64,000 nt of DNA from the sequence record EU863409. The stretch is one strand, 5' to 3'. The notes under the pieces were generated by a model. That model searched no databases. It was not told the origin of the DNA and worked only from the letters and a program-made list of their open reading frames with translations. The number at the start of each line of letters is the position of its first letter. The stretch's first letter is position 1. A program made the position numbers and the translations under genes. The DNA comes from Escherichia phage JS10. This document shows, piece after piece, positions 2,437 to 60,000 of the stretch.

Positions 2437-2746
2437 TTTTAACTACCTCATGTTGAACATATTCTCTGGTAGAACCCAGTTCAGCCAGAATTCTTCTCAT
2501 AGAACCCATCGTACTTTTGTGCTCTCTGTGACGATACAATATCTCTAGAACCTTTTCCTGGACAACAGGAGAGAGCGCCTGGTTATCTTTAATCTTTAAG
2601 GCAATAGATTTTACAGCCTTAAGATATTCTAGTCCCTTGCCGCTTGTAATCACTACTCCTTCGTCTTTACAATTACGAATTGCAGTCTCCATAAAAGACA
2701 AAGCCAAGTTATCAGTGTTCACTATACTATTATCTTGCATAATCAT
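2423..2746 (-). CDS. hypothetical protein
   Basis: 107-aa ORF; early-promoter-like element lies just upstream at 2765-2794. Confidence 0.45.
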   Translation of the reverse strand: MIMQDNSIVNTDNLALSFMETAIRNCKDEGVVITSGKGLEYLKAVKSIALKIKDNQALSPVVQEKVLEILYRHREHKSTMGSMRRILAELGSTREYVQHEVVKNDKL

Positions 2747-2764
2747 ATTCTCACCTCTTAGAGA

Positions 2765-2794
2765 ATCGTATCACACTTTTAATCTGTTGTAAAC
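2765..2794 (-). promoter_or_regulatory. early-promoter-like element
   Basis: minus strand reads GTTTAC, 18-nt spacer, TACGAT. Confidence 0.45.
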
Positions 2795-2796
2795 CC

Positions 2797-2820
2797 CGAA
2801 AAGGGCCTTGCGGCCCTTAA
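2797..2820 (-). terminator. intrinsic terminator-like hairpin
   Basis: GC stem agggcc/ggccct with 4-nt loop, U-run on minus-strand RNA; directly downstream of the 53-aa ORF. Confidence 0.5.
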
Positions 2821-2982
2821 TTAGTTGCTTGAATCGACTCTATAAACTTGACCACGGGTTTGGTAAACTTCGCCGTCCCATGTTTCAACTGTGATAGTAA
2901 CGTACTCGGCAAAAAGAGGACGTGTATCTGTCCAGAGATAACCATATTCACCTGTGACGAGCGTAACCCAGTACTTTCTCAT
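2821..2982 (-). CDS. small hypothetical protein (53 aa)
   Basis: ATG at 2980-2982 preceded by AAGGAG 5-6 nt upstream; stop at 2821-2823; below track cutoff. Confidence 0.45.
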   Translation of the reverse strand: MRKYWVTLVTGEYGYLWTDTRPLFAEYVTITVETWDGEVYQTRGQVYRVDSSN

Positions 2983-3024
2983 AAAGTCTCCTTTTATACG
3001 GTACTCATGTACCGTACGTATTTA

Positions 3025-4842
3025 TTATGACATCCAAGCCTTGCGCAGCTGTGGGTCGTTTCCAAGGAGCATTTCGAACTGGTCTTTCCAATCTTCAGGT
3101 AATTGAACTACATCGAATTTAGGGTCTTGAATCATTCGACGGTATTCAGCCTTCTCAAGAGAACCGAGACCTTTAATATAACGAATAGAATGTTTTGGTA
3201 GAGAGTCCTTAGCTTTGGTATAACTAGGTACATCATAGAACCATTCCTGTTCTTTACCAACCTGAGCAATGATTACAGGAGTCTTACAGAAACGAATTCG
3301 TCCCTGTTCAAACAATTCCGGCCACTGACTAAAGAAAGCTAATAACGAAGGATAAATCGAACCAGTACCATCCACATCGGCGTCAGTCATGATAGCGATA
3401 TTGCGATAGTTGGTTTTATCTGCAGGTTCACCAATAACCAGTCCAGTGATTGCACAGATATCAAACAATTCTTTGTTCTTCATGATATCGGCAGCAGTCA
3501 TACCCCAGGTATTCATAACCTTTCCGCGTAACGGATAACCACCTTGGAGGTCTTTATTACGAACTTCAATGAAAGGACCCATTGCAGAATCACCTTCCGT
3601 AAGGAATAAAGTCGTATCAGCATCTTTGCCATACATATTGGCTTTAATATGCTTATGGACCTTGGCTTTCAAAGCTTTCTTAGCAGCTTTTGTTTCGGCT
3701 GCTTTTTCAGCAGCGAGTTTACGTGCTAAAGCTGCTTCGACAATAGGCATAATCAACCCATCGACCTTAAGAATAGCCGTTGCAATTTTCTTAGCATCAA
3801 TTTGGATATGGTTACGAATCTCACCAAACGGAGAGGTCAATCGCTCTTTAGTCTGTGAATCAAAACGCATATTGCTCATATCACGAATGAACATGACCAT
3901 CGTAAGGCATTCTTTAACACGAGCCTTAGTTACTTCGATTCCTTTATATTTCTTTTTAATACCAGGCAGAAGGTGCTCACAGATATCGTCAAACACACAT
4001 TCAACGTGATGGCCGCCATTCTTAGTATGGATATTGTTTACATACGTCAGTTGACGGAACCCGTCCGGAGAAGGAGTAAATGCCATCGAAACATTATCAG
4101 TTTCTTGGATTACAAAGTCTTCACCAAATTGCTTAGCATACTTTTTAAAGTTGCCATCTACTTTTTTACCATTAAAAGTAAATTGGATATCCGGATAAAT
4201 TACGGCCAGTGTTTGAAGACGGTCTAATGTAATATCCAGATAAATTTGGGACAGACTATTTTCTTCGAAATGGTTAAAGTCTGGGGTGAATATAACCGAA
4301 GTACCCTTACCTTTAGATTTCTTAGTAGACCAACCTTTGTTTTCCATTCCATTGGAACAGTTAACAGTAATCTCATTCTCACCATCAGAGGTGATGCCTG
4401 TGAACAAAACAGAGAAGATATTAGTTAAACTACTACCAACACCGTTCATGCCGCCTGTCTTACGCTCAGCGTCATCTCCAAAGTTACCACCGGCTTTTGG
4501 AATAGTCCATGCAGCTACAGGACCCGGAATTTGTTCACCGTTTTGGTCAGTAACCATTGCTTGAGGAATACCACGGCCATTATCAGAAACTGAAACCTGA
4601 TTATTCTTAATTTGAACATCGATTTTATTTGCGAATTTAAAATTGGTACGAATAGCTTCATCGACAGAGTTATCAATGATTTCGTCAATTAATTTAACCA
4701 GTCCAGGAACATAGTTCACCTGGGTAAAATTACCAAACAGGAATCGACCGTGAGCTTCATTAGCACTTGAGCCAATATACATCCCACTACGTTTTTTGAT
4801 ATGTTCAATGTCGGACAGTACTTTAATTTCATTCTTAATCAT
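3025..4842 (-). CDS. 39: DNA topoisomerase II large (ATPase) subunit, fused 39/60 type
   Basis: 605 aa; GyrB-like ATPase N-terminus; T4 synteny upstream of rIIA. Confidence 0.85.
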   Translation of the reverse strand: MIKNEIKVLSDIEHIKKRSGMYIGSSANEAHGRFLFGNFTQVNYVPGLVKLIDEIIDNSVDEAIRTNFKFANKIDVQIKNNQVSVSDNGRGIPQAMVTDQNGEQIPGPVAAWTIPKAGGNFGDDAERKTGGMNGVGSSLTNIFSVLFTGITSDGENEITVNCSNGMENKGWSTKKSKGKGTSVIFTPDFNHFEENSLSQIYLDITLDRLQTLAVIYPDIQFTFNGKKVDGNFKKYAKQFGEDFVIQETDNVSMAFTPSPDGFRQLTYVNNIHTKNGGHHVECVFDDICEHLLPGIKKKYKGIEVTKARVKECLTMVMFIRDMSNMRFDSQTKERLTSPFGEIRNHIQIDAKKIATAILKVDGLIMPIVEAALARKLAAEKAAETKAAKKALKAKVHKHIKANMYGKDADTTLFLTEGDSAMGPFIEVRNKDLQGGYPLRGKVMNTWGMTAADIMKNKELFDICAITGLVIGEPADKTNYRNIAIMTDADVDGTGSIYPSLLAFFSQWPELFEQGRIRFCKTPVIIAQVGKEQEWFYDVPSYTKAKDSLPKHSIRYIKGLGSLEKAEYRRMIQDPKFDVVQLPEDWKDQFEMLLGNDPQLRKAWMS

Positions 4843-13841: not shown

Positions 13842-14047
13842 AGGAAACCTCGTTTAAATTCAACCTTATCAATATCATCAGTCTCGTGACGGATTTCGGC
13901 GTTAAATTCGATAGAACCGTCTTCATGCATCATAAATGAATGGACAATAACTTCGGTATACCAAGGAGTATAGAAGTACTTTTTCAATACGTGATTAGCG
14001 ATAATTTCATCCAAAGTTTTATTTGGTTTAATCCAACGATTTAACAT
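13838..14047 (-). CDS. hypothetical protein
   Basis: 69-aa ORF. Confidence 0.4.
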   Translation of the reverse strand: MLNRWIKPNKTLDEIIANHVLKKYFYTPWYTEVIVHSFMMHEDGSIEFNAEIRHETDDIDKVEFKRGFL

Positions 14048-14114
14048 AGTGTTCTCCTCTATAAGATACGTCTATCTTAACATGGTCTACTCGTAAAGTA
14101 AACTACTAAAACGA

Positions 14115-14143
14115 AAAAAGGAACCCGAAGGTTCCTTATAATT
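14115..14143 (-). terminator. UUCG-loop intrinsic terminator after soc
   Basis: aaaaaaggaacccgaaggttcctt: 7-bp stem, cgaa loop, U-run on minus RNA. Confidence 0.6.
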
Positions 14144-14149
14144 AATCTA

Positions 14150-14383
14150 TCATGCCGCTGGAGTTACTTTAAACAAGTCTTCGTTTGCCGTAATCCATGC
14201 CTCCCGGTCATCCTTCTCAAAAACGGTAGAATATGCTGCATCTTTAGAAGGGAAAGTCTGGTAATGAGAGCCCGCAATTTTGTGGACATCTGAATACAGA
14301 GTAAAATCAATGGAAATTTCTTTGCCTTCTACAGTACCACCGGTGACGTCACGGGTAGCTGTTTTGATATTAACATAAGCCAT
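14150..14383 (-). CDS. soc: small outer capsid protein Soc
   Basis: 77 aa; MAYVNIKT...GKEISIDFTLYSDVHKIAGSHYQTFPSKDAAYSTVFEKDD matches T4 Soc closely. Confidence 0.85.
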   Translation of the reverse strand: MAYVNIKTATRDVTGGTVEGKEISIDFTLYSDVHKIAGSHYQTFPSKDAAYSTVFEKDDREAWITANEDLFKVTPAA

Positions 14384-14413
14384 GCAATTCTCCTTTATGA
14401 TTAATTACAAATG

Positions 14414-14421
14414 TATTTATA
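14414..14421 (-). promoter_or_regulatory. late promoter TATAAATA for soc
   Basis: plus-strand tatttata; about 30 nt upstream of the soc ATG, with AAGGAG RBS in between. Confidence 0.6.
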
Positions 14422-14423
14422 CC

Positions 14424-14447
14424 AAAAAAGGAACCCGAAGGTTCCTG
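14424..14447 (-). terminator. UUCG-loop intrinsic terminator after soc paralog
   Basis: same aaaaaaggaacccgaaggttcct hairpin as at 14115. Confidence 0.6.
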
Positions 14448-14451
14448 GTAA

Positions 14452-14682
14452 TTAAAACATATCGTCGACAAACATTTTACTATTTAAAGCAATCCATTCC
14501 TCCCTTTGGTCTTCTTCAAAGACCGGAGTATAAATTGGTTTTTCAGTAATAGAAATTGTATAGTTTGCACCAGCAACACGGTTAACATTGGAATAAAGAT
14601 TAAAATTAACCGAAGCTTTTCTGTTACCAATAGTCATATCGCCGTCAACATGAACGAAGGTCTTGATGTTTACATAAGCCAT
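14452..14682 (-). CDS. Soc paralog (divergent second copy)
   Basis: starts MAYVNIKT at ATG 14680-14682 (track gives 14694); 76 aa, alignable along its whole length with the soc ORF. Confidence 0.7.
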   Translation of the reverse strand: MAYVNIKTFVHVDGDMTIGNRKASVNFNLYSNVNRVAGANYTISITEKPIYTPVFEEDQREEWIALNSKMFVDDMF

Positions 14683-14724
14683 GCAATTCTCCATTTTATT
14701 AATTACATGACTTATTTATTAGTA

Positions 14725-15246
14725 TTAATAACCTCGGTCTTGACGAGCAAAGTTCTCGGCATTTTTAAGATAATACAGTTTAAAGATTTCTTCAGCAGTC
14801 AGTCCAAGACCCTGGAACATATTCAGAACAAAGTGCAGAATATCAATCATTTCGAATTTAATTTCGAGCTGGTCTTCAGGAGACAAATCATTAATCAGGG
14901 TTTCGCGACGTTCAGCATGTTGAGCTTTCCAAGGCTTCCATACTGCAGATGCATCTTTTTCACCATTGCTCATACCACCAAGAGAAGTCAGAAGTTCACG
15001 GAATTCGTCATCAATATAATCTTTCTGGTTGCGAAGCCAATCGACAACTTCACCCGCAGTGGCCAAATCATCAGGATGACGATTATATTCAGGCTTATCT
15101 TTAGCTAAACGAACCTGTAATGATTTCTGCATATCAAGCATAACCTGCAGAGGGTCTTTATCTTCGTGAATCAGAGCATTAAAATAAGCTTCTTCAGCTT
15201 TATCGGCACCGGCAATCAGTTGAGAACATTCATTAAAATGAGCCAT
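14725..15246 (-). CDS. 56: dCTP pyrophosphatase (dCTPase)
   Basis: MAHFNECSQL... matches T4 gp56 start; MazG-like; track start 15264 trimmed to ATG at 15244-15246. Confidence 0.85.
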   Translation of the reverse strand: MAHFNECSQLIAGADKAEEAYFNALIHEDKDPLQVMLDMQKSLQVRLAKDKPEYNRHPDDLATAGEVVDWLRNQKDYIDDEFRELLTSLGGMSNGEKDASAVWKPWKAQHAERRETLINDLSPEDQLEIKFEMIDILHFVLNMFQGLGLTAEEIFKLYYLKNAENFARQDRGY

Positions 15247-15340
15247 TATATTTTTCCTTATCAATTCATTTGTTAGTAAGTGAGATAATTATAAACTGCT
15301 AGATTAAAGCGAATAAATATTAATTTAACAGGAGGATAAC

Positions 15341-15541
15341 ATGGGTAGTATCTTTTATCAAATTTGGAAATTGGCTGAAAAGAAAGACAAGAAAATGATG
15401 TTAGGTTTTCTTGCGCTGGACGTATTCCTTTGGAATCTTCTGGTAGTCCCTGTAGCCGCTAGCCAAGGGATAATTTTACCAGCGGTTACAATGGAGCACG
15501 TAATGAGCATTATAGGATTCTTTACCGGAATCCCTGCTTAA
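15341..15541 (+). CDS. small hydrophobic protein (66 aa), plus strand
   Basis: AGGAGG 5 nt upstream of ATG; two predicted hydrophobic segments; lies in the 56-61 intergenic space. Confidence 0.4.
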   Translation: MGSIFYQIWKLAEKKDKKMMLGFLALDVFLWNLLVVPVAASQGIILPAVTMEHVMSIIGFFTGIPA

Positions 15542-16566
15542 ATCTTGGAATATTTCGAAAGTCTCATTTTTGCCATTAAACCCTGGGCTATATTAGCTTT
15601 CATATATGCCAATACATCATTTATATCAGCTTTATCTTTCATAACCATATCATTTATATCTTTAGAAGGCCATGGAGCCTTGTCCCAGAATAGAACCCTT
15701 TCGCCGGCATCAACTAATCGTTGCATACGCTTAATTGTGTCAGGATGACGGGGTTCATTGTCCATTACCCAAGCACGAGTTTCTTTACATGGAACCATAG
15801 CCAAGTCCAACGACCCACCAGTAATTGCTATTGCATTAGGTACGAATAATGAATCAATAGGACCTTCCATTACCCACACCAATTGACGTTCGTCAACTGT
15901 ATCCATTCCATATATTTTTGTAGCTTGGTCGTGAGCTTTTATTGTAATATATTTTTGTGGAGCATCTTTACGTAAGGCTCGGCCCTGAAAACTTTCAATT
16001 TGTTTATTCTTATTGAAAATCGGAATAACCAAACGTGGTTCAGGCATTTCTTTGGAATAGGTCCCTGGATTAACAGAATTCACCAATGCAGGCCATTCTT
16101 TAGTAAACCATAACCGATTCCATTTATTTTCAGGAATGCACCGCAGAGTTACATACTTAATAATAGGATGGTCTTTCGGCATTCTATCTAATCGTTCACA
16201 GAAATTAAGCTTTTCAATGACAGGCATCTTAGCTTTAATTTTTTCAGATATCTCCACCTTAGGTGCAGCTTGTCTCCCGAACGATTGCTCTTTATGTTTC
16301 TCAAGAATATATTCGCGATATAAATCAGGCTCATATTCGTATAGGTACTTCTTAATTCCTGCTGAATAATCGCAGTTAAAACAGTGTAGCATTACAGAGC
16401 CGTCATTGGCCGGATAGGCCCAGAATCGAGCTTTGTTCTCATCCTTTTGGGAGTCGCCACATACACGACAACGACAGTTTAATTTAAAATCACTACCAGT
16501 TACTTGTCTGAATTTAGGTTGGTAATTCAAGGCACGTACAGCAAATTCTCTATCGACATATGACAT
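15538..16566 (-). CDS. 61: DNA primase
   Basis: 342 aa (same length as T4 gp61); N-terminal Cys4 zinc ribbon CRCRVCGDS...CFNC. Confidence 0.85.
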   Translation of the reverse strand: MSYVDREFAVRALNYQPKFRQVTGSDFKLNCRCRVCGDSQKDENKARFWAYPANDGSVMLHCFNCDYSAGIKKYLYEYEPDLYREYILEKHKEQSFGRQAAPKVEISEKIKAKMPVIEKLNFCERLDRMPKDHPIIKYVTLRCIPENKWNRLWFTKEWPALVNSVNPGTYSKEMPEPRLVIPIFNKNKQIESFQGRALRKDAPQKYITIKAHDQATKIYGMDTVDERQLVWVMEGPIDSLFVPNAIAITGGSLDLAMVPCKETRAWVMDNEPRHPDTIKRMQRLVDAGERVLFWDKAPWPSKDINDMVMKDKADINDVLAYMKANIAQGLMAKMRLSKYSKI

Positions 16567-16782
16567 TATTTTTCCTTGGGCTCTAAATTAATAGAGCCAT
16601 TATATCATTCGTTTTCGGATTTTTCTTTACGCTTTTTAGATGGGATTTGTTCAGGCCCTTTGTTGACGACTGCGCCTGAGGTAGTTCCGGAGGCAATATT
16701 AGATGGATTTCCACCAGCATCGCCTGCGACCATATCTTCGTTCATAACTTCTTTAAAAGATTTCATAGGCTCCTGGCCTTAT

Positions 16783-16974
16783 TTATATTACGAAAATAGC
16801 TTTATCACCATTTGCATCAGTGACTTCATATGTATCTTCGTGGTAAAGTGGGATAATCCAAGTTACGCCATCACCGGCAATAATATGGATAGCTTCTTGG
16901 TCTTTTGATACGATTTCATATTCTTCGAACAGTTCGAATACAGAAATCTTAGAGCCCGTACACATTGCAGTCAT
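16783..16974 (-). CDS. hypothetical protein
   Basis: 63-aa ORF. Confidence 0.4.
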   Translation of the reverse strand: MTAMCTGSKISVFELFEEYEIVSKDQEAIHIIAGDGVTWIIPLYHEDTYEVTDANGDKAIFVI

Positions 16975-16975
16975 A

Positions 16976-17416
16976 TTAACCTCGGTTCATAAAGGCATTA
17001 AAAATCTGGTCGTCAATTGAATAAACCGGAGCTTCCAGAATTTTCAACAGACTGTTTTTGATATACTTGCTAGGGATATCCATATTAACAGCATCATTCA
17101 ATTCGTTGTCCGGGAGGATGTCTTTAAATTCGAATCCATCAAACTCAACCTTGTCAGGAATACCTTCAGCGAAAAAATAAACCAATTGATGCATTGCATT
17201 ACACGAAAATAATTTAGACCTTACCGCAATAAGTTCTTGCCAATGGTTTAATTCTCTGTTAAGAAGTTTATGGGCCATTGTAATTCTATCATCACTATCA
17301 ACAAGAAAATAGCCCAGGTACTGGTGGTCGTCGCTCCAAAACATCCTGTATGCTTGTGCATTTGGATTTTTGCAACGGAGCTTTTTGATAACCAAATTTC
17401 TGTTAATCTTATTCAC
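16976..17416 (-). CDS. hypothetical protein
   Basis: 146-aa ORF. Confidence 0.5.
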   Translation of the reverse strand: MNKINRNLVIKKLRCKNPNAQAYRMFWSDDHQYLGYFLVDSDDRITMAHKLLNRELNHWQELIAVRSKLFSCNAMHQLVYFFAEGIPDKVEFDGFEFKDILPDNELNDAVNMDIPSKYIKNSLLKILEAPVYSIDDQIFNAFMNRG

Positions 17417-17718: not shown

Positions 17719-17760
17719 GTTGATAGGTCTATAGTACCACTACCATAGACCGATGTAAAC
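17719..17760 (-). promoter_or_regulatory. early-promoter cassette
   Basis: gttgataggtctatagtacca...gtaaac. Confidence 0.6.
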
Positions 17761-59480: not shown

Positions 59481-59969
59481 TTATCTATAAGCAGCCCAAG
59501 TACCTGTTTTAAAGGTGGCGATAACACGCTTGGCACGATTCGGGGTTTGCTTGTACCAACGAGACTGCGCCAGGTTAACTGCCGCATCGTCCCAACGTTT
59601 CTGTTGGAGCATACGTAAAGAGTTAGTGAACCCTGCCACACCTGCTTCACCCATTTGGAAGACCATATTAATCAATGCGCAACGACGAACTTCGTCCAAC
59701 ACATCATAAACCGGTTTCAATTTAGGATTGCGCATTATAGCTCTACGAGCATTTTCCACTGAACGATTAAAGAGTTGTTCAGCTTCAGCCATAGTAATAC
59801 GACCATTACAAACTCGACCCATAAGCTTATCAAGTTCAGCGCGAGCAACATCTTTAGATGGGTTCTTGGTAACTAACTGGCCAATACCAATAGTCCAATA
59901 ACCTTCGGTGTCTTTATAAAGGTTTAAATCAAGACCTTCGTCTTGACGTAACATATCAAAAATATCCAT
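59481..59969 (-). CDS. e: endolysin (T4 lysozyme)
   Basis: 162 aa; long identical blocks with T4 lysozyme ([62 protein letters not shown]). Confidence 0.95.
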
Positions 59970-59974
59970 AATTA

Positions 59975-59992
59975 CCTCCTGATTATAGGAGG
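59975..59992 (-). promoter_or_regulatory. RBS-sequestering hairpin of gene e
   Basis: inverted repeat cctcct/aggagg around a 6-nt loop; the AGGAGG RBS is in the 3' arm. Confidence 0.6.
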
Positions 59993-60000
59993 TATTTATA
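59993..60000 (-). promoter_or_regulatory. late promoter TATAAATA of gene e
   Basis: plus-strand tatttata immediately upstream of the hairpin. Confidence 0.6.

Follow-up and report, generated by a model that had tools for sequence, protein, structure and literature searches.

The lysis and lysis-inhibition systems of phage T4 are textbook systems that are thought to be fully inventoried, with t, e, rI, rIII, and the spanins as their components. In T4, gpT serves as the main holin, and lysis fails in t mutants. Class II holins and pinholins, such as T7 gp17.5 and phage 21 S21-68, are late proteins of ~65–70 amino acids (aa) with two hydrophobic helices and a charged C-terminal tail. The PF11351 family (GTA_holin_3TM, for three transmembrane helices) takes its name, according to its Pfam description, from the release holin of the Rhodobacter capsulatus gene transfer agent (GTA); the GTA locus rcc00555–rcc00556 is reported to be required for lysis and GTA release (PMC5026251), direct evidence on this lysis locus having initially been thin (PMC3423380). 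No function is recorded for any member of the family formed by Dam.1 of phage T4T (HM137666) and phrog_2024, whose homologues are 61–74 aa long. Here, we analyzed a member of this family encoded by a 66-aa open reading frame (ORF) in a stretch of 64,000 nucleotides from Escherichia phage JS10 (EU863409), a JS98-like T4-type phage (Dhakavirus); this whole stretch is referred to below as the window. The ORF, which lies on the plus strand between genes 56 and 61, proves to be a real gene, and profile comparisons relate its predicted membrane protein to the core of 3TM holins.

The ORF runs from 15341 to 15541 (+), with an ATG start and a TAA stop at 15539–15541, and is preceded by a Shine–Dalgarno (SD) sequence, AGGAGG, at 15330–15335 (+), from which a 5-nt spacer (ATAAC) leads to the ATG. 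This is the 66-aa plus-strand ORF with AGGAGG-N5-ATG that a first-pass annotation of the window, made from the letters alone, had placed between dCTPase and primase. Its product, MGSIFYQIWKLAEKKDKKMMLGFLALDVFLWNLLVVPVAASQGIILPAVTMEHVMSIIGFFTGIPA, matches phrog_2024 (function unknown) with an E value of 2.8e-28, residues 1–64 aligning to profile positions 1–64 of 65. The window gene shares family, length, position, and late-promoter/SD layout with T4T Dam.1 and other phrog_2024 members (e.g., YP_010094394.1 of IME281 and YP_009205723.1 of VR5). The window copy is of a JS98/Marfa-type subfamily, ~20% identical to the T4 type, and nothing essential distinguishes it from the T4T Dam.1 family.

Comparison of the window copy with those of JS98, VR5, and Marfa gave ratios of nonsynonymous to synonymous substitution (dN/dS, Nei–Gojobori) of 0.07–0.10. 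The nucleotide differences fell mostly at third codon positions (e.g., 4/2/12 and 14/3/34 by codon position), and between genera synonymous change was saturated. The frame of the ORF was the only one without internal stops in all nine homologues tested. Using tblastn, we found 130 phage records with a homologue (Dhaka-, Gapriver-, Marfa-, Kanagawa-, Moon-, Mosuguk-, and Gelderlandvirus), down to ~31% identity, while the T4-type protein occurs in 698 further records (Tequatro-, Mosigvirus, and others), giving ~830 T4-like phage records in all. An exhaustive HMMER search of 1.84 billion representatives returned 25 clusters only, of 45–99 aa except for the weakest match (E 8e-4), a 3816-aa protein for which no matched stretch was obtained; the family is thus small, and direct sequence searches yielded no annotated relatives. 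A spurious ORF is ruled out by the dN/dS values together with this conservation, and the 66-aa ORF is a genuine gene of T4-like phages under purifying selection. Conservation in related phages had been put forward in the first-pass annotation as a check on its hydrophobic small membrane ORF, and on both counts the annotation stands: the ORF is a conserved, selected membrane-protein gene across the Tevenvirinae, T4 included.

In T4, a 66-aa ORF lies at NC_000866 17738–17938 (+), in the gap between dam and gene 61. It overlaps gene 61 by 4 nt, as in the window, and its upstream sequence is nearly the same (ATAAATATTAATTTAA(A/C)AGGAGG). It is unannotated in NC_000866 and was named dam.1 in T4T. 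The JS98 RefSeq record also carries no annotation of the gene, and most newer records list it as a "hypothetical protein." With "hypothetical" entries in hundreds of genomes and the name dam.1 in T4T, the gene itself cannot count as new. In a large protein collection, the exact T4 protein sequence was present in raw-read assemblies only, with no T4 protein accession. In every locus examined (T4 and eleven further loci), the homologue lies directly against the 3' end of the primase gene (gene 61), on the side that faces gene 56; the neighbor on its other flank varies and may be gene 56, mobE, dam, or small hypothetical genes. A GGAG-type SD is kept at all homologous loci except that of the second copy in phage VR26 (VR26b), which is co-transcribed with an upstream paralogue.

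Several local rearrangements were seen around the family. VR26 (Gaprivervirus) carries tandem paralogues 8 nt apart, one T4-type and one JS98-type (1295–1492 and 1501–1701 of the retrieved stretch), with a late promoter before the first copy only, and in the Gaprivervirus relatives TH57 and SP18 the second copy appears truncated. Over 14700–16600, the window shares 97.9% identity with Escherichia phage Esco_phi_B-01 and 97.6% with JS98. Within this 1.9 kb, the ORF differs from its JS98 counterpart at 18 of 198 nt (9%; 15341–15538 vs. 3117–3314 of the retrieved JS98 stretch), and it is closest to the CUA3 and IME08-type copies; this pattern suggests local mosaicism or recombination. Homing endonuclease genes recur beside the gene family (at 2050–2706, 2567–3004, 2647–3084, and 3007–3504 of the respective retrieved stretches), and in the Dhakavirus relatives VR5 and IME08 the space between gene 56 and the ORF is occupied by mobE.

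At its 3' end, the stop codon TAA of the ORF and the minus-strand primase stop share a TTAA palindrome, so that the ORF ends 4 nt inside the primase gene, as had been noted at first pass. This convergent overlap is kept in most genera, and no intrinsic terminator was found on either strand of 14600–16700, where a scan for sigma-70 promoters and terminators also detected no excess of promoter-like sites. Both features would fit a main function at the RNA level, in which the late plus-strand transcript would run antisense into gene 61 and help to shut off primase and early mRNAs, with the peptide secondary. We regard this as very improbable. The amino acids are under strong purifying selection with synonymous change saturated between genera, protein motifs are kept down to ~20% identity, the strong SD is conserved, and the copy of a Klebsiella phage described below is inverted yet retains the protein; in addition, Rfam returned nothing relevant over 14000–17000, and no notable structure was seen. 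A pure antisense-RNA role is rejected on the protein-level selection.

We then examined the protein itself. Residues 1–18 form an amphipathic, basic, Lys-rich N-terminus with a net charge of +3; residues 19–41 form a strongly hydrophobic transmembrane (TM) helix 1 (Kyte–Doolittle [KD] hydropathy up to 2.1 in a 19-residue window) that contains W31, N32, and P37; residues 42–50 (SQGIILPAV) form a loop with G43 and P47; and residues 51–66 form helix 2, with E52 and G63. Among 12 genera-level representatives, W31, N32, P37, G43, P47, V49, and G63 are invariant, defining a core W-N-x4-P-x5-G-x3-P-x-V ... G, and an acidic residue at position 52 is common, not universal. An AlphaFold2 (AF2) model built from a 32-sequence alignment comprises a helix (3–41), a loop, and a second helix (51–62). 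When this model was compared with BFVD using Foldseek, only family members were retrieved, the model being too small and of too low confidence for fold inference. By hydropathy and the two AF2 helices, the product is a small protein with at least one TM helix, as is usual in the holin class. The polar Asn in the middle of TM helix 1 and the acidic residue of helix 2 suggest, from general knowledge of membrane proteins, helix–helix association, either with itself or with a partner. Since the N-terminus follows the positive-inside pattern and the protein is homologous to TM2–TM3 of a family with a basic C-tail (see below), the hairpin is predicted to have an N-in/C-in topology.

The end of helix 1 could also be read as the cleavage site of a signal peptide, with an A-x-A/S motif (VAAS|QG; VAIA|HG in T4) at which a ~24-aa periplasmic peptide would be released, and a small-x-small motif does precede the conserved Gly in most, not all, T4-like members. 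This we hold to be highly improbable, because of the length of the helix and the invariant residues within it: a 23-residue hydrophobic stretch after an 18-residue n-region is too long for a typical signal peptide, and W31, N32, and P37 would all lie inside it. Furthermore, the site reads L-V-A in WFL6982 and A-H-T in PM2, and the homologous segment of PF11351 is an internal TM helix.

Sequence searches of Pfam, NCBIfam, and PDB with the single protein and with a 12-member profile yielded noise only. Distant members of the family, however, gave weak colinear matches to PF11351 (P0128, P0133, and P0137; E 0.03–0.07), the best of them reaching 14–15 bits, below the Pfam gathering threshold of 24.8 bits; two of these (P0128 and P0133) also matched phrog_3427, "holin" (E 5e-4 and 1.4e-3). 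Two true PF11351 proteins, gp19 of Vibrio phage 1.293.O, which is annotated as a holin (E 6.6e-22), and gp44 of Roseobacter phage CRP-125 (E 1.9e-15), both belong to phrog_3427, and in the reciprocal direction the Vibrio phage holin matched phrog_2024 (E 0.003). Profile–profile comparison of the small family with these two proteins gave a probability of 96.1%. When hhalign was run against a set of 34 non-redundant PF11351 proteins gathered from viral contigs, the probability was 96.6% (E 4.8e-10, score 56.8, 53 columns), with ORF residues 15–66 placed on holin residues 70–128 and the invariant W, P, G, P, acidic residue, and G in register. In control runs, the reversed alignment scored 10.6 (0.2%), and 30 column shuffles scored at most 13.8 (≤0.6%). 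Together, these profile alignments show homology between the ORF family and the TM2-loop-TM3 core of PF11351/phrog_3427.

The two families thus have in common a TM-loop-TM core with W(N)F, P, G..LP, an acidic residue, and G. The window protein is, in contrast, half the size of PF11351 proteins, lacks both their N-terminal motif VNKxEAxHxS-FVAGWRP and their RTxEKxKG tail, and stays below the Pfam threshold. Because the core aligns but the N- and C-terminal parts are absent and the Pfam threshold is missed, the small protein is best described, on these comparisons, as a minimal derivative of the 3TM-holin membrane core and not filed as a PF11351 member. Class II holins and pinholins resemble it in size, in their two helices, and in its predicted lateness, but no sequence similarity to them was detected, and the charged segment of the ORF product is N-terminal, without a charged C-tail.

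The genomic surroundings of the relatives were also compared. Three distant family members (P0122, P0133, and P0138) lie on prophage-like contigs just past a tail-tip gene and 0.5–1.4 kb from a Phage_lysozyme gene; on such contigs, the lysozyme gene and the family member are separated by a SegE-like GIY-YIG gene. In at least four of the nine loci sampled, the PF11351 gene has a lysozyme-like, GH108, or GH19 enzyme beside it, the two GH19 matches being weak and sub-threshold. The PF11351 gene of CRP-125, an Autographiviridae phage, lies between a tail-fiber-assembly gene and maturase A, a position that we take to be equivalent to that of the T7 holin gp17.5. Proximity to lysozyme genes is common to the distant family members and PF11351 genes; in T4-like phages the small gene is not adjacent to the endolysin.

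A prediction of the timing of expression can be made from the upstream sequence. T4 late promoters have the consensus TATAAATA at −13 to −6, the first T (−13) being poorly conserved in T4 relatives (PMC1524935). A predicted gp55-type late promoter, AATAAATA, lies at 15312–15319 (+) in the window, with its ATAAATA core at 15313–15319. Both strands of the 64 kb together contain 8 copies of ATAAATA, compared to 26.7 ± 4.6 in shuffled sequences, a ~3-fold depletion, which points to selection against stray late promoters. On the plus strand there is a single copy, which ends 21 nt before the ATG of the 66-aa ORF. At least five of the eight copies stand just upstream of ORF starts, namely those of both soc copies, 61.1, lysozyme e, and the 66-aa ORF. 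The core recurs upstream of the ORF in most genera examined, 12–22 nt before the SD, in sequence that is otherwise unalignable: Q7622, Kosakonia 305, and Marfa carry a perfect TATAAATA; T4, VR26 (first copy, VR26a), WFL6982, PEi20, and PM2 carry the ATAAATA core; and Moon and CGG4-1 carry ATTAAATA at this position.

The composite signal ATAAATA-N8-24-GGAG-N4-10-ATG was found four times in the window, against 0.17 expected. Of the other three, two stand before soc paralogues and one before the ORF at 59481–59969, which we take from its sequence to be the T4-type lysozyme e. Both soc and e are classical late genes. Since the late-promoter core is conserved and unusual, and the composite is otherwise found only before soc and lysozyme e, the 66-aa ORF is predicted to be a late gene with a transcript start near 15325, ~6 nt past ATAAATA; the corresponding start predicted for T4 is near 17722.

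Some details of these other late-type signals may be added. The lysozyme e homologue (59481–59969, −), the only other non-soc gene with the composite, has ATAAATA-N-AGGAGG-N-ATG at 59967–59999. The two tandem soc-like ORFs (small outer capsid protein; 14150–14383, − and 14452–14694, −) are 40% identical over 70 aa, each with its own ATAAATA, GGAG, and ATG, and JS98 is annotated with a single soc there. A perfect TATAAATA at 16780–16787 (−) lies 14 nt upstream of a 53-aa ORF (16605–16766), a gp61.1 homologue, which hints from the sequence that this small gene, too, may be under a late promoter.

Combining these observations, we propose the following course of events. RNA polymerase carrying gp55 would start at AATAAATA (15312–15319) and produce a ~16-nt leader with a strong SD, which would give efficient translation. 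The 7.3-kDa product of 66 aa would insert into the inner membrane as a helical hairpin with its Lys-rich N-terminus in the cytoplasm, TM1 (with the invariant Trp-Asn and Pro) leading through a short periplasmic loop (G..LP) into the weaker helix 2 with its conserved acidic residue. It would accumulate in the membrane late in infection and, through its polar intramembrane residues, oligomerize or bind another membrane protein. There, it would act in lysis, as an accessory or pinholin-like permeabilizer or as a modulator of holin timing. Late timing, membrane topology, oligomerization, and the role in lysis are all features that we infer. In our judgment, the data are best explained by a holin-derived protein of the inner membrane that is made late and acts in lysis or in its timing, an explanation with an even chance of being right. 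Taken by itself, a part in lysis or its timing is more probable than any other single function, at even chances or slightly below, because of the holin ancestry, the genomic context of the distant members, and the composite late signal that also precedes lysozyme e.

A number of observations weigh against this proposal. First, t mutants do not lyse, and the ORF protein therefore is not a sufficient holin and would be at most an accessory; that it should be the main holin is unlikely. Second, the kinship to holins is partial. The window protein had no PF11351 match at E ≤ 1, where the Pfam gathering threshold is 24.8 bits, and the T4-like subset alone aligned to PF11351 with 94% probability. 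The N-terminal ~65-aa region of PF11351, with the first hydrophobic/amphipathic helix and a coiled segment, is missing, the alignment starting at ORF residue 15. Also missing is the basic C-terminal tail (LRTxEKxKG): the ORF product ends in ...GFFTGIPA with no charge after E52/H53 and so does not have the charged C-terminus typical of holins. Helix 2 is marginal, residues 48–66 being moderately hydrophobic (KD 1.1–1.6) and including E52/H53, and the confidence of the AF2 model is modest (mean pLDDT 67.7). Third, lysozyme e (59481–59969) lies 44 kb from the ORF, and linkage to an endolysin is confined to distant members that are not T4-like. Lastly, literature searches, which covered T4 ribosome profiling, small ORFs, late antisense transcription, and maps of T4 transcription starts, found no expression or phenotype data on the gene or protein, and database names are all "hypothetical" except one, an unreviewed UniProt entry named "Holin."

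A further point of this kind comes from Klebsiella phage vB_KpnM_17-11 (Jiaodavirus), in which the homologue occupies the same slot between primase and dCTPase but is inverted (1771–1962 of the retrieved stretch). It is thereby co-directional with the early/middle genes for primase and dCTPase, no ATAAATA was found upstream of it, and judging from this arrangement it is probably expressed together with them. A lethal hole-former would hardly fit such pre-late expression. Between the primase stop and the homologue lies a GC-rich hairpin. The arrangement looks like an inversion of the ORF alone. The other strand still carries an ATAAATA-GC-AGGAGG string toward gene 56, and an 8-bp inverted repeat (GGAGGATT...AATCCTCC) stands at the end of the ORF.

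Because gpT is the T4 holin, the ORF protein has no charged tail, the gene is unlinked to e, and the Jiaodavirus copy is turned around, a role outside lysis is a serious rival, which we consider possible, at roughly one chance in three. The product would then be a real late small membrane protein that serves in superinfection exclusion or blocking of injection, acts as membrane anchor or chaperone for a complex involved in assembly or replication, or modulates a membrane protein of the host, and its similarity to the holin core would reflect only the shared ancestry of a generic hairpin. The absence of the regulatory N- and C-terminal parts of PF11351 agrees with this, as does the fixed position of the gene beside primase and not beside lysis genes; the co-orientation with early/middle genes in Jiaodavirus suggests that the product is tolerated early, and the known lysis set of T4 is already complete. 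On the other hand, the late-promoter signature is shared in the window with lysozyme e, distant family members lie near lysozyme genes, and searches of Pfam, NCBIfam, and PDB revealed no similarity to an exclusion or anchor family. The lysis reading is the one we retain as the best explanation. Its more specific form, in which T4 and its relatives would possess a second holin-superfamily protein, a minimal two-helix 3TM derivative that is made late and takes part in setting lysis time, lysis inhibition, or the depolarization that triggers gpT, is tentative and in our view rather unlikely as stated.

The left neighbor of the ORF is gene 56, encoding dCTPase/dUTPase (14725–15246, −; phrog_173, E 1e-46), and its right neighbor is gene 61, encoding DNA primase (15538–16566, −; phrog_47, E 4e-97). 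The first-pass remark that the window is otherwise minus-strand coding holds, because only one of the 11 plus-strand ORFs left in the 64 kb after greedy filtering, the 66-aa ORF, has an ATG and an SD; the other 10 have TTG/GTG starts or no SD, resemble shadows of minus-strand genes, and look spurious. The combination of ATG, strong SD, and promoter motif is likewise confined, among the plus-strand ORFs of the window, to this gene. Local GC skew is positive exactly over 15200–15500, as expected of a plus-strand gene amid minus-strand genes. What had been described as an AT-rich gap of 270 bp is really a non-coding gap of 94 bp (15247–15340), which holds the two predicted divergent promoters and both 5' leaders, followed by the coding ORF. 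With 23.4% GC, the gap falls in the lowest 0.1% of 94-nt windows; the GC content of the ORF, 40.3%, is ordinary.

Immediately back to back with the late promoter lies a predicted MotA-dependent middle promoter of gene 56, GCTTTA-N11-TATAAT (15288–15310, −), the homologue of T4 P56/69, which is the promoter tied to oriA. This element fits the MotA-box consensus (a/t)(a/t)(a/t)TGCTTtA at 12 ± 1 bp from the −10 element (PMC2988021), and matches to GCTTYA-N10-13-TATAAT number five in the window, against 0.29 expected. The element and the gene 56 leader downstream of it are homologous to TTGCTTA-N13-TATAAT upstream of gene 56 in T4, for which coordinate counting gives a start at 16813, the position listed for P56/69 (PMC2988021 Table 1). 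The same MotA-box/−10 layout occurs upstream of gene 56 in VR26, WFL6982, PM2, and CGG4-1. Since the predicted late (+) and middle (−) promoters abut inside 94 bp, the gap is, by its sequence signals, a back-to-back middle/late promoter unit. In T4, by comparison, the dam gene separates P56/69 from the small gene, whereas in the window the P56/69 homologue directly neighbors the ORF.

The gap had also been suggested at first pass to act as a replication origin of the oriA type. This would be compatible with the gene, and the neighborhood is the right one. In the T4 record, the oriA feature stands at 16763, within gene 56 at its 5' end, and the transcript of gene 56 is given as the primer. Some evidence that a MotA-dependent promoter provides the priming at oriA is cited in a review, and the window keeps the homologous promoter in a 94-bp gap that is extremely AT-rich. 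From the position of T4 oriA, any origin would be tied to the P56/69-homologue promoter and the gene 56 5' end, and not to the ORF. However, most of the supposed gap is coding, and a repeat search found no iterons or origin-like repeats, only short two-copy matches. The review describes oriA as the least well defined of the T4 origins, with higher activity late and a partial dependence on UvsX, and literature searches gave no origin mapping in any Dhakavirus. The suggestion is supported in part only, and an oriA equivalent in the 56–61 intergenic region is unlikely.

Literature searches found no experimental work on the protein and no paper on the conservation of the late promoter, its back-to-back placement with the P56/69 homologue, or the profile-level link to the 3TM holin core. 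The compact divergent promoter unit in the 56–61 gap matters for the mapping of oriA-type origins and for engineering of the region. Should knockouts have no phenotype, the gene would be one more conserved small membrane ORF whose role is unassigned. If T4 does possess a second holin-superfamily protein, it would have gone unstudied partly because the T4 reference leaves the gene unannotated; a gene that is present in T4 yet absent from the reference annotation is missing from the proteomic and genetic screens built on that annotation. As a conserved and selected gene with a late signal and a relationship to holins, it is a concrete candidate for a factor of the membrane or of lysis that has escaped notice in the most thoroughly studied phage.

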